From sequence record AP019521.1: a DNA stretch of 64,000 nucleotides; one strand, written 5' to 3'. The position numbers were made by a program, and so were the translations under genes. Shown here in pieces: positions 21,708 to 43,289 of this stretch. The notes beneath the pieces were generated by a model. It ran no database searches and was not told the DNA's origin. It worked only from the letters and a program-made list of their open reading frames with translations. Positions within the stretch are counted from its first letter, which is position 1; each line of letters opens with the position of its first letter. The stretch is from Escherichia phage KIT01.

Positions 21708-22280
21708 TCAACTCGTTATTTCTATCCAGTGCTTCCTGCACAATGACACGTAAGAATCGTTGCCACCTATAGAAACTTGGGCGCCGTCCTTAATTGCGAT
21801 ACCATCCTGGACCCTAGCAGTCATAGTAGCTTTACGGCCACAATGGCACACACCTTTGTACTCAACGAGTTTATCTGCTGTAGCGAGTAATTCAGCAGAG
21901 CCAGGAAACAGTTTACCCTGAAAATCAGTTCTTAGCCCGTAGCACATAACCGGGACATTATAATTGTCTACTATCTTTGCCAGTTGTTTTATCTGTGCAG
22001 GTTCTAAGAACTGTGCTTCATCCACAAATACACAGTGGATATCTTTTTGAGATTCAGCCCAACGATAGAACTCGTATAGGTCCATATCCGGAGTCACGGC
22101 ATTAGCCTCTTGACTAATCCCTATACGAGACGAAATGGTATGGCTTGATTCTCTATTGTCTATCGCAGGCTTTAAAAGGAGTACGCCCATACCGCGTTCT
22201 TTGTAGTTATGAGCGGCCGTTAGCAATGAAGCAGTTTTCCCGGAATTCATTGCCGCATAGTGAAAATAAAGTTGAGCCAT
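21708..22280 (-). CDS. tk: thymidine kinase
   Basis: 190 aa; P-loop AAMNSGKTASLL and C-terminal Cys cluster characteristic of type II thymidine kinase. Confidence 0.85.
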   Translation of the reverse strand: MAQLYFHYAAMNSGKTASLLTAAHNYKERGMGVLLLKPAIDNRESSHTISSRIGISQEANAVTPDMDLYEFYRWAESQKDIHCVFVDEAQFLEPAQIKQLAKIVDNYNVPVMCYGLRTDFQGKLFPGSAELLATADKLVEYKGVCHCGRKATMTARVQDGIAIKDGAQVSIGGNDSYVSLCRKHWIEITS

Positions 22281-22289
22281 ATTACCTTC

Positions 22290-22496
22290 TTAAAGACTAT
22301 TTACATAAGCAATTAATTCGTTTTCTTTCTCATCAAATCGATTAGCAAATTCTTCCAAATGGTCGGCATCTATCGGGCCATATTCATCATAAAAGGCATT
22401 TGCTTCCGTATGCTCATCCAAAAGCTCATGGATAAGCTCAAACAATTTATCTTTCTGTTCTTTACTCAGACTCATAACCATTGTACCTTTAAGCAA
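22290..22496 (-). CDS. hypothetical protein
   Basis: 68-aa ORF. Confidence 0.4.
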   Translation of the reverse strand: MLKGTMVMSLSKEQKDKLFELIHELLDEHTEANAFYDEYGPIDADHLEEFANRFDEKENELIAYVNSL

Positions 22497-22684
22497 TATT
22501 CTTCTACGTGCTGTTTACGTTTATTTTTATCTATAAAAGTATATTCAACATATTCGCCAATATACCATTTATCGGTGTTGTGTTGACTTTTTATAGGACA
22601 TTTAGTTACTCGAGTTTCGGTCCAGCGTCGAATAATTTCCGCTTTGTTTTTAGGGTCAAACGGATGTGGGTAATGGGCTTTCAT
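22472..22684 (-). CDS. hypothetical protein
   Basis: 70-aa ORF. Confidence 0.4.
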   Translation of the reverse strand: MKAHYPHPFDPKNKAEIIRRWTETRVTKCPIKSQHNTDKWYIGEYVEYTFIDKNKRKQHVEEYCLKVQWL

Positions 22685-23123
22685 AATCTACCACCACTAA
22701 ATTAATATCAGGAGTAAACAAATTAATCAATTGGTAAACCTTGTCCCAATCACCACCAGCAATACCACAACCAATGCGAGGGATATAAATTCTTGGTTTA
22801 AACAAAAGACCTTTTGCTTGTTGATTTAATTCTATCATACAGTTTACTAAAGCGCCGTAATCAAGATTAGGGCCTGGTTCGTATTGGGTATATAAATTAT
22901 AGCAAATTTGGCCATTATTACCTGTAGCTTGAGTAAACGTGCCAAGTTTTGCCAAATTACCTAAATAAGTAGTTTTATCGATAGCGAGAATAGGCGGATA
23001 AGCCTTAGCCAATTGCCCAGCTACACCTGAACCCATCGTGTGGAAACAGTTACACCCGTGTGCAACATTATTACCTTGAAGAAACAGGGCGACGATATCG
23101 CCCTTAATATAATCAATAATCAT
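22656..23123 (-). CDS. Macro-domain protein (ADP-ribose binding/processing)
   Basis: YIKGDI...NNVAHGCNCFHTMGSGVAGQ and IGCGIAGGDW resemble the Macro-domain diphosphate-binding loops (compare E. coli YmdB). Confidence 0.55.
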   Translation of the reverse strand: MIIDYIKGDIVALFLQGNNVAHGCNCFHTMGSGVAGQLAKAYPPILAIDKTTYLGNLAKLGTFTQATGNNGQICYNLYTQYEPGPNLDYGALVNCMIELNQQAKGLLFKPRIYIPRIGCGIAGGDWDKVYQLINLFTPDINLVVVDYESPLPTSV

Positions 23124-23476
23124 TTAGAGTTTAATCCTCGATTGTATGAGTCAACGAGTCTGTCTACCATAGACGCGCACATTTCTTTGTACTTTTTATC
23201 AGATGGAATACATTCAGTAACGTTTAGACGTTGCTCGTATCTTTTAGAAAGGGTTTTCTCTTTCATTCGGCGATGCTCTACGTCGTTCTGGCCATCTTTA
23301 AAAGCAGCTGTGATTTTTGAACTGAATTCGATAATGCATTCAGTATTACTCGGATGACAATAATCTTTTGCTGTACGGGTAGCATACTCGACAATTGAAT
23401 TATTACTATCATCAACTTGTGACGCTAATACTCCCGGAGCAATCAACATAAGCGCTATAGTCATCTGCTTAATCAT
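23120..23476 (-). CDS. secreted hypothetical protein
   Basis: 118 aa with N-terminal signal peptide MIKQMTIALMLIAPGVLAS. Confidence 0.45.
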   Translation of the reverse strand: MIKQMTIALMLIAPGVLASQVDDSNNSIVEYATRTAKDYCHPSNTECIIEFSSKITAAFKDGQNDVEHRRMKEKTLSKRYEQRLNVTECIPSDKKYKEMCASMVDRLVDSYNRGLNSK

Positions 23477-24016
23477 TTAATACACCGCCTCAAACATCTT
23501 TTTAGATTTTAGGTAATTGGCCTTTTCTAGAACTTCAGAAGCATATTTACTGCCTGCTTTGACGTTCCAGCCTGCATTATAAGAAGCAATCGCTTTTCTC
23601 AGGTCACCTTTGTGAACATCAATCCAATAAGACAGTTCAATGTAGGCCCAAGAGGCACTGTTCTGTCGTTTTTGGACCATACGAATTATTTCTTTGTCTG
23701 ACATCTTCCAACCTACCTGTTGAACACGACTTCTTAACGTAGGCAAGTAATTTTGGAACATGCCATAAGCATGGTGCTTATCTTTATTTAAACCCTGATT
23801 AATTCCGGCGGATGATTCCTGCCATAGTAATCCGGCCATAATATATCCTAATCCTTTTTGATTAGGGTTTTCTTTGAACTTTCCCGACTTTTGGTATTGT
23901 TCACCGAAAGCATACGCATAATGTAAATTATCGAGTTGTTCATTACTGAAAGTAGGCTCTACGCTATAGGCAGACATACTAACTGTCAATAGTAAAGTGG
24001 CTAATACTTTTTTCAT
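23477..24016 (-). CDS. periplasmic lytic transglycosylase-like protein (SLT domain)
   Basis: signal peptide; LLWQESSAGIN...AYGMFQ...ASYNAG resemble SLT catalytic motifs. Confidence 0.55.
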   Translation of the reverse strand: MKKVLATLLLTVSMSAYSVEPTFSNEQLDNLHYAYAFGEQYQKSGKFKENPNQKGLGYIMAGLLWQESSAGINQGLNKDKHHAYGMFQNYLPTLRSRVQQVGWKMSDKEIIRMVQKRQNSASWAYIELSYWIDVHKGDLRKAIASYNAGWNVKAGSKYASEVLEKANYLKSKKMFEAVY

Positions 24017-24028
24017 GAGACCTCATTA

Positions 24029-24487
24029 TTAAAGATAGATTACTTTCGTGCTGGTTTTACCTTCTAAACGTTTAGAGTTAACAAATGCCATACGACATTT
24101 AAGGGAATATCCTTTATCAGGATGTTTACGGTCTACGGTCATACCCAACCATAAGGTTTTATCGGTAATTTCGAGACGCAACGGGCGATACACTTTACCA
24201 GGGACAATTTCGGATTCAACATCAGGCAGAGGTTCCTGGATTAAGAATTCATGAATTTCTTTAACATGGATATGGAGTTGCTTGAATAAAGCAAAAACGT
24301 ATTTTTCGTCGATTTCACGTTGGATAGCACGGTCCAACAAGTGATTAGAGTACTTAATAAAGAAGGCTGGGACTCCGCTCTTAATGGCGGCTTTTTTGAT
24401 GGACGCATTCAGTTCACGGAATTCGGTTTCGAACTGACGACGTAATTTGTTGCGGCGGATGAATACTTCTGAATTAATTTCTGACAT
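24029..24487 (-). CDS. regB: site-specific endoribonuclease RegB
   Basis: 152 aa; EVFIRRNKLRR...KYSNHLLDRAIQREIDEKYVF...LRLEITD matches T4 RegB. Confidence 0.85.
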   Translation of the reverse strand: MSEINSEVFIRRNKLRRQFETEFRELNASIKKAAIKSGVPAFFIKYSNHLLDRAIQREIDEKYVFALFKQLHIHVKEIHEFLIQEPLPDVESEIVPGKVYRPLRLEITDKTLWLGMTVDRKHPDKGYSLKCRMAFVNSKRLEGKTSTKVIYL

Positions 24488-24550: not shown

Positions 24551-24832
24551 TTAGTATTTCTCTTCAGGTCGGAAAACACCGCGACAAGCCCACATAGAAG
24601 CTTCTTTCAAACGGTCTTTGGCCTTAGACAGACAATCAGATGCAAAGAGTACCGGGTCCAACTCTTCTTCTGGGGTGGAAGAGCTGTTGGCTAGTCGATT
24701 ATATTCTTCGATAATCTCGTCTTCAAGCGCTTTAAAGATTAAACCCAATCGAACTTCAGCGTCTTTGATAGCATTCACTTTACTGATTTTATCGTCGGTA
24801 TGTGGTTTATAACCCTTGATATCTTCAATCAT
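24551..24832 (-). CDS. hypothetical protein (vs.3/vs.4 region)
   Basis: 93-aa ORF between regB and denV. Confidence 0.45.
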   Translation of the reverse strand: MIEDIKGYKPHTDDKISKVNAIKDAEVRLGLIFKALEDEIIEEYNRLANSSSTPEEELDPVLFASDCLSKAKDRLKEASMWACRGVFRPEEKY

Positions 24833-37756: not shown

Positions 37757-37831
37757 TGGTATCCCGCCCTGGGATCGAACCAGGACCGCAAACTTAGAAG
37801 GATCGTATGCTATCCATTACACCAGCGGGAC
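37757..37831 (-). tRNA. tRNA-Arg (anticodon UCU)
   Basis: hand-folded cloverleaf: acceptor GTCCCGC/GCGGGAT, T-arm CCTGG-TTCGATC-CCAGG, anticodon loop CTTCTAA, encoded ACCA 3' end. Confidence 0.7.
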
Positions 37832-37836
37832 GTAGT

Positions 37837-37913
37837 TGGTGACCCAGACCAGATTTGAACTGGTAACCTTTCCCTTATGAGGGGACTGCTGCTAACCATT
37901 GAGCTACAGGGCC
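37837..37913 (-). tRNA. tRNA with CAU anticodon (Met, or Ile if lysidine-modified)
   Basis: hand-folded: T-arm ACCAG-TTCAAAT-CTGGT, anticodon loop CTCATAA, encoded CCA; 5 nt from tRNA-Arg. Confidence 0.65.
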
Positions 37914-39888: not shown

Positions 39889-40581
<693 letters not shown>

Positions 40582-40589
<8 letters not shown>

Positions 40590-41343
40590 TTTTATTTCCT
40601 AATAATTTATCAATAGTGGTGTATAGTTCAGAAAGAGTGCCGTTATTTTCAACAACAACGTCACCAGGTAAAATTGGTAGACCCGCTTCAGTGATGTGCG
40701 AGTCTTGTACTTGACCGGTTTCAGCGCGAACTACATGAATAATCGTAGCACCCATCGCTCTGAGCGAATCAATTTCGTGTGTTTGACGAACATCAGGTAC
40801 GACATAGTATTTCGCATCAGAGTATATTTTATCAAAATAGTCTAAAGCGAACAACTTAACCCAATACATCTTATCAAATTGGTTAACAATAATATCAGTC
40901 CCAAGGGTCTGCATGAGACGACGTACTGACCAATTGTTATTTTTATTTATTACTTCAAACAGTTGGTCTTTTGTTTCTTCAGACAGATACTGAACTGGGG
41001 TAAGACCATAATGATATGCGGTACGAACGTCCATTCCTGGAATAGGAAGGATATTATTCAGTTTGACAATAGCATTTTCAAAGATATCAATCACATCATA
41101 TGGTTTTAAAGGAAGGATTTCTTCACGGTCGTAACCTATACCTTCAAAACAGTTGAAATCCAGTTTAGGCATATAACTACGGTCGAATACAGGGTCATCA
41201 GAGATGTATTCATAGGCTTCAGCCAGATACTTTTTAATAGGACCTGCGAGCTGAAATTTTACCGAATCCATATTTTCGATTACATAGTTAGCAACGGTAT
41301 CCTTACCGCTACGTTTGATTCCTACAATTGATATTAGTTTCAT
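40582..41343 (-). CDS. 1: deoxynucleoside monophosphate kinase gp1
   Basis: 253 aa; GIKRSGKDT P-loop and WSVRRLMQTLGTDIIVNQFDKMYWVKLFALDY match T4 gp1. Confidence 0.9.
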
Positions 41344-42015: not shown

Positions 42016-42852
42016 TTATGAATTCTTCCATACTTTCTGAGCTGAGTAACGCTTACCTTTAGACATGAACTGTTGGAGCGGCAGCATGACCACATTAGCC
42101 CAATCAGATGGTTTTATCTCTACTAAAGGTCCCTTAATATTTCCAGGGATATAAGCCTTAATCATCACGTCGGCTCCGGCGAATCCTTTTACCTTACTCC
42201 AATCGATTTTTAATTTAGTCGAGTTCGTAATGGTAGGCGTACTCGCATATTGCTTCAGCAATTCTTCCAGAAATTGTTGTCGTGCTTTAGGTGGGATATA
42301 GTGTAAGTTCAGCCCGTACATTAAATTATGCTTACCTAACCCAAGATAAATGATTAAAGGATATTTGTCCCAGTACGGTAGGGTATCCTTATGTTTGGCA
42401 TCATAGATATAAGCATAAAGCTTACCAGGAGATGGTTTAGATACCTGGTGTCCACGAATTCCTTTCTTTAATGTTTCTGTAAACCATTTAGCTGATTTAT
42501 TGTTTACAGCAGCGCCTTCGTTAGCAATCTTATCACGAATACTCTTTCTAAAACTATTCACCAAAATTAATTGTCGTTCGGCTTTGGTTAATTTATTGCC
42601 AGGTTTATTCTGAAGTTTTTCAACCTGTACAGCAGTTTTAATTCGACTCGAGTATCGAGACATTGCAGATGTAAAGCTAGAATACTTGATGCCTTTATCT
42701 TCAGCGAATTTCTTAGCCGAGACACCTTTAGCCTTGGCATTGGCATATTCAACGCCTAAAGCTATCCATTGTTGTTCTGAACGAGTAGGCTTAGAACCTT
42801 TTGTAGTTTCAGTAGCCTCGTTTATGTAAGAAAATATACTCATCCTTTCCAT
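42016..42852 (-). CDS. 2: DNA end-protector protein gp2
   Basis: 278 aa, size and position of T4 gp2. Confidence 0.8.
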
Positions 42853-43289
42853 CCTAATTTTTTCAGTGAGTTTTCGGTAATCAATCTGAAATTAATTCCC
42901 ATTTTATCTGCTGTAGCTTTAGCAGCTTTCCATTTATCTTTATTTACACTCCATGTATAATGTTCGTTGATATATCTCTTTTTAGCAGCTGTAGTCATTT
43001 TAGCAGGTGCCGCTGGAGGATGGGTTTCTTTAAAAGGTTTGACTTCGAAAAAGAATTGTTGACCATTATCGAACTTCACCCAGAAGTCCATAAAATACCG
43101 ACGTTTCTTTCCATCAGCGTTACTAAAATATGGAATCACAACCTCTTCCGAGTTCCACTGGACGACATTAGGGTGGTTGTCAAGCCAACGCATAAGCCAT
43201 GCTTCCCAAGAGGAACGATATTGGATTTTCTTCCAGTCACCTTTATATTTTTGTAAGTTTGTAGGTTTAAATTTCCCTGAGTAGGCCAT
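42840..43289 (-). CDS. 4: head completion protein gp4
   Basis: 149 aa; late promoter 26 nt upstream; divergent from gene 53. Confidence 0.8.

Follow-up and report, generated by a model that had tools for sequence, protein, structure and literature searches.

The genes around tk in Escherichia phage KIT01 were characterized in the window, which is the whole stretch of 64,000 nucleotides (AP019521.1) that was analysed. On the minus strand the gene order is regB, vs.1, vs, tk.4, tk.3, tk.2 and tk. The gene considered here, tk.4 (adfM), is an open reading frame of 155 codons that starts with ATG. The genes and sequence features of the locus are as follows.

24029-24487, minus strand: regB
23477-24016, minus strand: vs.1
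23120-23476, minus strand: vs, directly upstream of tk.4
22656-23123, minus strand: tk.4 (adfM) coding sequence, 155 aa with one Macro domain, from the open reading frame list, Pfam, PHROG, identity to the Bp7 and T4 proteins, AlphaFold2 and Foldseek
22472-22684, minus strand: tk.3, DUF7202
22290-22496, minus strand: tk.2, DUF7438
21708-22280, minus strand: tk
23120-23123, minus strand: ATGA, overlap of the vs TGA stop and the tk.4 ATG, read from the sequence
23135-23139, minus strand: GAGGA, resembling a Shine-Dalgarno sequence, in the last part of vs and 11 nt before the tk.4 ATG
23086-23104, minus strand: GC-rich stem-loop AGGGCGAT-ATC-GTCGCCCT, codons 7-13 of tk.4, flagged in a terminator scan

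The 3' end of tk.4 overlaps tk.3 by 29 nt. A preliminary description of this DNA had placed the gene next to tk; the two are not directly adjacent, as the small genes tk.3 and tk.2 lie between them. The predicted product is a 17-kDa protein.

The ATGA overlap between the end of vs and the start of tk.4 is also present in T4 and RB3 and suggests translational coupling. The Shine-Dalgarno-like region of tk.4, AATCGAGGATT, is identical in both of these phages. The stem-loop near the 5' end of the gene (-13.0 kcal/mol by RNAfold) consists of rare codons, whose joint frequency is about 0.002; it is kept in the tk.4 genes of T4 and RB3 and is absent from more distant homologs. Sigma-70-like promoter matches numbered 12, about as many as shuffled sequence gives (11.8), and the minus strand from 21.5 to 25.5 kb had no match to a MotA-box middle promoter. 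Since no dedicated promoter signal was detected, tk.4 is probably transcribed by read-through from upstream.

Across the 4 kb around tk.4, identity to Escherichia phages WG01, Bp7, JS10 and IME08 is about 95%, and 25 kb of the window give a similar picture; by these identities the window belongs to a T4-like coliphage of the Bp7/JS10/WG01 type. The window protein shares 99.4% identity with the one annotated as tk.4 in Bp7. BLASTP aligned it with T4 Tk.4 over 155 of 155 amino acids with 52.9% identity (E=5e-62), whereas the protein of RB3, a member of the same genus as T4, is 75.5% identical. The arrangement regB-vs.1-vs-tk.4-...-tk is common to T4, RB3 and T4-like phages of Klebsiella and Aeromonas, and the position of tk.4 between vs and tk.3/tk is the same in T4, RB3 and PhiKpNIH-6. 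On the combined evidence of synteny and sequence, the window gene is the ortholog of T4 tk.4 (adfM) in the PHROG 335 group. The T4 protein, which is the AdfM of a recent preprint (bioRxiv 10.1101/2025.11.20.689424), resembles the window protein in its length of 155 aa, in the vs-tk.3 position and vs ATGA overlap of its gene, and in the invariant motifs AHGCNC, NLYTQ and PRIG.G..G.W. It differs at 47% of positions, has seven extra residues inserted after residue 67, and shows GAGIGKGNW in the phosphate loop in place of the GCGIAGGDW shared by the window protein and the family consensus. Unusually fast evolution of tk.4, as expected of an arms race, was considered and rejected because its 53% identity to T4 lies inside the range of 46-71% found for six neighbouring genes and their T4 counterparts.

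The product of tk.4 was compared with domain profiles and solved structures. Pfam PF01661 (Macro) matched it at profile positions 2-117 of 118 with 33.4 bits (E=4.9e-8; the gathering cut-off is 22 bits), and PHROG 335 matched it with E=4.8e-67. Homologs were found in 2733 of 50,697 phage records, reaching far outside the T4-like phages, and 355 protein clusters matched at E<=1e-3. The Pfam and PHROG matches and the wide distribution of homologs show that tk.4 is not a chance open reading frame. AlphaFold2, supplied with a family alignment of 35 sequences from which T4 was left out, gave a model with a mean pLDDT of 92.9 and a pTM of 0.87, in which alternating strands and helices form the three-layer alpha/beta/alpha macro fold and disorder is limited to the last five residues.

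Foldseek comparison of this model with the PDB gave human TARG1 as the top match (E=9e-9, TM 0.75-0.83), followed by Poa1p (E=6e-8), BT1257 (E=1e-7), DarG of M. tuberculosis (E=6e-7) and of T. aquaticus (E=1.2e-6), and the Thermosipho DarTG fusion 7omu (E=6e-6); coronavirus Mac1 ranked after all of these. The 50 matches listed were all macrodomains or designed proteins matching together with them, with TM values of 0.64-0.83. Searching PDB sequences with the family profile gave a similar set, namely BT1257 (2.8e-20), TARG1 (8.7e-18), SCO6735 (2.6e-17), Poa1p (4e-14) and DarG (6.6e-10). [quoted passage not shown] The preliminary description had called the 155-aa product a Macro-domain protein; the Pfam and profile scores and the predicted fold, with DarG macrodomains among its Foldseek matches, bear this out. 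Both of the motifs on which that description relied are present in the translation exactly as given, NVAHGCNCFHTMGSGVAGQ at residues 19-37 (nt 23013-23069) and IGCGIAGG at residues 117-124 (nt 22752-22775). The conservation of the two Gly-rich loops (MGSGVAG and GCGIAGG) predicts that the protein binds ADP-ribose.

A family alignment of 36 sequences has 18 invariant columns, and the window protein retains every one of the invariant residues. The motifs that hold most of these residues are listed here, with invariance as seen in that alignment.

23046-23063, minus strand: AHGCNC, residues 21-26; A21, H22, G23 and N25 invariant
23013-23036, minus strand: MGSGVAGQ loop, residues 30-37; G33 and A35 invariant, G31 nearly so; aligns with MGAGIA of TARG1
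22884-22898, minus strand: NLYTQ, a strand end, residues 76-80; N76, Y78, T79 and Q80 invariant
22746-22781, minus strand: PRIGCGIAGGDW loop, residues 115-126; P115, G118, G120, G124 and W126 invariant

AHGCNC aligns with AHVCND of SCO6735, and N25 aligns within the H.CND motif of SCO6735 and BT1257, where it corresponds to the conserved catalytic-site Asn (Asn27 of SCO6735). Mutation of Asn27 has been linked to complete loss of activity in SCO6735 (PMC9411070), and mutation of the conserved Asn lowered the activity of PhiKZ AdfM (PMC13309987). By analogy with macrodomain structures, the MGSGVAGQ loop would be one of the loops lining the ADP-ribose site. Where Tk.4 has Q80, TARG1 and DarG have their catalytic Lys (K84 and K80, respectively). 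In the profile alignment, LITK of TARG1 and MIGQ of BT1257 stand opposite lYtq of the family, and FPTK of PhiKZ gp104 aligns there too. The Lys/Gln equivalence is thus based on the TARG1 and BT1257 alignments, on PhiKZ gp104 as a DarG-like proxy and on the structure-based alignment of PMC9411070, in which Gln85 of SCO6735 takes the position of DarG K80 and TARG1 K84; its Q85A and Q85E mutations abolished activity (PMC9411070). This Gln-for-Lys substitution was not remarked in the preliminary description. The PRIGCGIAGGDW loop aligns with PRIGCGLDRLQW of TARG1, PRIGCGLAGGKW of BT1257 and PRIGCGLAGGTW of SCO6735, with A122 of the window protein opposite the catalytic D125 of TARG1. We infer that this loop is the counterpart of the phosphate-binding loop of SCO6735, which holds a conserved Gly128 whose G128E mutation lowers activity (PMC9411070).

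With Gln at the catalytic-Lys position (Q80) and the conserved Asn in the first strand-loop (N25), the window protein has the residues of the Gln-type macrodomains. SCO6735 of Streptomyces coelicolor (PDB 5E3B) and BT1257 of Bacteroides (PDB 2FG1/2AFC), both among the best profile matches to solved structures, are likewise stand-alone proteins of about 150-180 aa that lack a toxin-binding domain, have Gln at the DarG/TARG1 Lys position and the conserved Asn, and carry a GCGLAGG loop. Unlike tk.4, they are encoded by bacterial chromosomal genes, and their identity to the window protein is about 25%. The mobile loop that follows the Gln is also longer in them; Tk.4 is about six residues shorter there, with a gap opposite YKDSKGLPP of BT1257. 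A long mobile loop has been called characteristic of the SCO6735/BT1257 subclass (PMC9411070), and the window protein, with its six-residue gap, does not have this extension. TARG1 (OARD1; PDB 4J5R/4J5S) is the best structural match and reverses the thymidine ADP-ribosylation made by DarT (PMC9411070), but its catalytic dyad of K84 and D125 is replaced by Q80 and A122 in Tk.4.

DarG (PDB 5M3I, 5M3E) has the same fold class as Tk.4 and the same opponent, DarT2. It is, however, about 340 aa long with a C-terminal DarT-binding domain, whereas Tk.4 has 155 aa and no such domain, and the catalytic Lys80 of the T. aquaticus protein is replaced by a Gln that is invariant in the Tk.4 family. The NCBIfam equivalog model for DarG (NF048014) gave 20.6 bits for the window protein and 30.3 bits for T4 Tk.4, both far below the cut-off of 250, and in both proteins it matched only with its N-terminal macro part (positions 3-138 of 338 for the window protein). 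The PADLOC model for DarG agreed (E=2.4e-6, positions 3-142 of 329). No darT gene lies beside tk.4 in the window, where its neighbours are vs and tk.3.

Bacterial relatives were sought in 185,579 species, each represented by one genome, and at least 505 were confirmed. The best 80 of these are 32-43% identical to Tk.4, and among the 74 of the 80 with an identifiable open reading frame, 59 are stand-alone proteins of 140-179 aa. Genes adjacent to the 74 are mixed: Peptidase_A8, EamA and Exo_endo_phos occur four times each, and NADAR, ADP_ribosyl_GH and TK are single cases. No DarT family was found among the 25 most frequent of the 66 Pfam families in 91 neighbours of the 74 bacterial homologs. 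We considered whether the closest bacterial relatives might be DarG proteins encoded next to DarT and rejected this on the same three grounds of short stand-alone reading frames, mixed neighbours and the lack of a DarT family among the 25 most frequent; isolated DarT neighbours outside these 25 families may still occur. Because the reading frames are short and stand-alone, their neighbours are mixed and the DarT-binding domain is missing, the Tk.4 lineage looks like an orphan macrodomain family rather than a recently captured DarG.

Genetic evidence for the function of tk.4 comes from a HIDEN-SEQ preprint of November 2025, in which a T4 transposon library was grown on E. coli expressing DarTG2 and tk.4 was the single significant match (bioRxiv 10.1101/2025.11.20.689424). 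A clean deletion of tk.4 sensitised T4 to DarTG2, and the gene was renamed adfM (anti-DarT factor Macrodomain), with a structural likeness to M. tuberculosis DarG being noted (bioRxiv 10.1101/2025.11.20.689424). Enzymatic removal of ADP-ribose from DNA was graded there as something that "seems likely" (bioRxiv 10.1101/2025.11.20.689424). This evidence consists of one preprint with one DarTG2 system and the T4 allele, and our reading of the literature gave no biochemical assay for a protein of the Tk.4 type. [quoted passage not shown] That the window gene might reverse host ADP-ribosylation by DarTG, as the preliminary description proposed, matches the single screen match and the sensitised knockout of the T4 ortholog, and the proposal is supported by these published genetics. 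It is correct and already known, the gene being the named and genetically characterised tk.4/adfM; the window itself adds nothing new, because tk.4 is annotated in near-identical phages and the phenotype of the T4 ortholog has been defined.

It is likely that tk.4/adfM encodes a stand-alone macrodomain that provides counter-defence by hydrolysing the thymidine ADP-ribose made by DarT2, and the chemistry is probably of the SCO6735 type. The host toxin DarT2 would ADP-ribosylate thymidines in single-stranded phage DNA and so block replication; Tk.4, holding the ADP-ribose with its two Gly-rich loops, would hydrolyse the bond between thymine and ribose, making the DNA replicable again. An essential Gln (Q80) and Asn (N25) would probably position the substrate and a water molecule as in SCO6735, and the Lys-dependent chemistry of DarG and TARG1 is probably not used. 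The grounds for this reading that we regard as established are the Macro fold and class, the fact that the gene is orthologous to T4 tk.4, the replacement of Lys by Gln and of Asp by Ala, and the requirement for tk.4 on DarTG2 hosts reported in T4. In vitro, SCO6735 takes ADP-ribose off thymidines modified by DarT more quickly than either DarG or TARG1, and it also protects cells against DarT; a water-mediated mechanism has been proposed for it (PMC9411070). The window protein has the same loop type, GCG[IL]AGG. Several observations count against hydrolysis of this kind. Nearly half of the positions differ between the window allele and the T4 allele that was tested, with changes in the phosphate loop as well. 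The long mobile loop that has been proposed as a DNA clamp in SCO6735 and BT1257 (PMC9411070) is absent from Tk.4, and the window protein is mildly acidic (pI 5.5), in contrast to the strongly electropositive character described for SCO6735.

SCO6735 also inhibits DarT by direct interaction, so that protection without hydrolysis is possible. Tk.4 might then protect mainly by binding and blocking DarT2 ("interaction-inhibition"), as do AdfA, AdfB and the C-terminal domain of DarG. We think this improbable. The catalytically dead Q85A form of SCO6735 inhibits DarT in vitro more strongly than mutants of DarG or TARG1 do (PMC9411070), two other phage anti-DarT factors, AdfA and AdfB, work by binding DarT, and the acidity of Tk.4 (pI 5.5-5.9) is suggestive given that the DarG C-terminal domain mimics negatively charged ssDNA. 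However, the residues used by SCO6735 for hydrolysis (the Asn, the Gln and the Gly-rich loops) are invariant in 36 diverse family members, bacterial-like ones included, and invariance across so diverse a family is expected of an enzyme rather than of a toxin-specific binder. The match to the DarG model also ends with the macro part, so that Tk.4 has no counterpart of the DarT-binding domain.

Activities on other substrates were also weighed. Tk.4 could be a small-molecule enzyme of NAD or nucleotide metabolism with no part in defence evasion, either an ADP-ribose-1''-phosphate phosphatase like Poa1p or an O-acetyl-ADP-ribose deacetylase. Yeast Poa1p is indeed among the top matches by both fold and sequence, genes of nucleotide metabolism, tk among them, are neighbours of tk.4, the label of PHROG 335 is "phosphatase", and several sources name homologs "O-acetyl-ADP-ribose deacetylase". 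These labels, however, are transferred annotations, which we consider misleading for Tk.4; the sole reported phenotype of tk.4 is conditional essentiality on DarTG2 (bioRxiv 10.1101/2025.11.20.689424), and two of the three solved relatives closest by profile (BT1257, TARG1 and SCO6735) hydrolyse DNA adducts made by DarT (PMC9411070), which makes a purely metabolic role very unlikely. Small-molecule activity and DNA de-ADP-ribosylation are not mutually exclusive. It is equally hard to credit that the substrates are other ADP-ribose marks, whether protein or RNA modifications made by the phage's own Alt, ModA and ModB or those made by host toxins that ADP-ribosylate RNA. T4-like phages encode Alt, ModA and ModB (PMC8120803), SCO6735 removes ADP-ribose from proteins as well (PMC9411070), and RNA-targeting ADP-ribosylating defences and enzymes that reverse them have been described (PMC11833690, PMC11825919). 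Yet Alt, ModA and ModB modify arginine (PMC8120803), and none of the literature consulted reports Arg-ADP-ribose cleavage by the ALC1-like class, so erasure of their marks is unlikely; the suggestion in the preliminary description that the protein might tune the phage's own marks finds no support for the same reasons. The vicinity of tk.4 contains no alt, modA or modB gene, neither an ADP-ribosyltransferase family nor any other ADP-ribose-related gene was found among the 25 listed of 51 Pfam families in the 86 other open reading frames of the window, and the match to tk.4 in the T4 screen was specific to DarTG2 (bioRxiv 10.1101/2025.11.20.689424).

It is rather unlikely, if conceivable, that T-even Tk.4/AdfM constitutes a third branch of DNA de-ADP-ribosylating macrodomains, adapted to phages and marked by the Gln-type site, a shortened mobile loop and an acidic surface. 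Were this so, it could differ from DarG and SCO6735 in the substrates it accepts or in how it acts, for example by acting only on phage replication intermediates, by needing a phage partner, as AdfN does, or by combining hydrolysis with DarT binding, and the differences between window/RB3-type and T4-type alleles would reflect adaptation to different DarT2 variants.

As a probable gene for counter-defence by hydrolysis, tk.4 joins the phage enzymes, increasing in number, that reverse the ADP-ribosylation of DNA by the host. Like Tk.4, T4 AdfN (gp30.3, NADAR) and AdfA (gp61.2) are T-even anti-DarT factors, and AdfN is also an orphan, antitoxin-like ADP-ribosylglycohydrolase (PMC11825919). AdfN differs in its NADAR fold and in acting on guanosine adducts made by DarT1, with no effect on DarTG2 (PMC11825919). 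Neither adfN nor adfA was identified in the window, as far as the 25 listed of 51 Pfam families in its 86 other open reading frames show. Gp104 of PhiKZ, also named AdfM, is a stand-alone phage macrodomain of 162 aa that counters DarT2 (Cell Rep 2026, PMC13309987) and removes ADP-ribose from a DarT2-modified oligonucleotide in vitro (PMC13309987). It is, however, 20% identical to the window protein (profile-profile probability of 96% by hhalign), keeps the DarG-type Lys (FPTK) where Tk.4 has Gln, and scores 137.8 bits against the DarG model on which the window protein scores 20.6. Judged by these comparisons, PhiKZ gp104 and T-even Tk.4 are separate lineages under one name, and the existence of a Lys-type and a Gln-type AdfM indicates that phages recruited macrodomains against DarT2 at least twice. 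The mechanistic interest lies in these two unrelated macrodomain lineages, of which the T-even one lacks the catalytic lysine of DarG.

The genus Tequatrovirus holds two divergent alleles of tk.4 (adfM), represented by RB3 and T4.
L083 (comparison stretch from phage RB3) 1501-1980: RB3 tk.4
L001 (comparison stretch from phage T4) 2501-2968: T4 tk.4
The RB3 protein shares 75.5% identity with the Tk.4 of the window, whereas the T4 protein shares only 52.9%, and the phosphate loop of T4 Tk.4 (GIGKGNW) departs from the family consensus, GIAGGDW. The name AdfM has also been published for a protein of PhiKZ, gp104.
L082 (comparison stretch from phage PhiKZ) 12518-13006: PhiKZ gp104
In contrast to Tk.4, gp104 is a DarG-like, Lys-type macrodomain, with just 20% identity to Tk.4; the name AdfM now spans two separate lineages, Tk.4 and PhiKZ gp104.

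The 5' end of tk.4 contains a GC-rich hairpin with a folding energy of -13 kcal/mol, followed by a T-rich stretch.
Window 23086-23104, minus strand: hairpin AGGGCGAT-ATC-GTCGCCCT, codons 7-13 of tk.4
The hairpin is made up of the rare codons AAG, GGC, GTC and GCC (joint usage about 0.002) and is kept in the tk.4 genes of T4 and RB3 despite protein identities of just 53-76%; the homologs from Klebsiella, Aeromonas and Acinetobacter lack it. It could serve as an attenuator or translational-control element between vs and tk.4.

The genes flanking tk.4 lie on the same strand.
Window 22290-22684, minus strand: tk.2/tk.3 region
Window 23120-23476, minus strand: vs, "valyl-tRNA synthetase modifier"
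Window 23477-24016, minus strand: vs.1, weak SLT transglycosylase match
Downstream, tk.4 and tk.3 overlap by 29 nt in the window, compared with a 4-nt ATGA overlap in T4, and there is one tk.2-like gene without a tk.1 paralog, whereas T4 has both. Upstream, the N-termini of Vs and Vs.1 are hydrophobic and signal-peptide-like (MIKQMTIALMLIAPGVLAS and MKKVLATLLLTVSMSAYS, respectively), as are those of their T4 counterparts, which is odd for Vs given its reputed binding to a cytoplasmic synthetase.

Two further predicted counter-defence genes were detected in the window.
Window 24551-24832, minus strand: 93-aa Acb2/Tad1 hairpin-domain protein (PF24729, E=9e-17)
Window 39889-40344, minus strand: homolog of the anti-CBASS phosphodiesterase Acb1 (PF23474, E=8e-59)
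The 93-aa protein looks like an anti-CBASS/anti-Thoeris sponge, and its gene is 1.4 kb upstream of tk.4, which places two counter-defence genes in one small-gene cluster. The Acb1 homolog is encoded near the dNMP kinase gene (window 40582-41343).

Two other loci were recorded.
Window 37757-37913, minus strand: tRNA-Arg(TCT) and tRNA-Met(CAT), side by side
Window 42840-43289, minus strand: 149-aa ORF matching the N-terminal domain of TnsA-like endonucleases (PF08722, E=2.9e-24)
The ORF, which may encode a mobile or homing-type nuclease, is close to the baseplate gene block.
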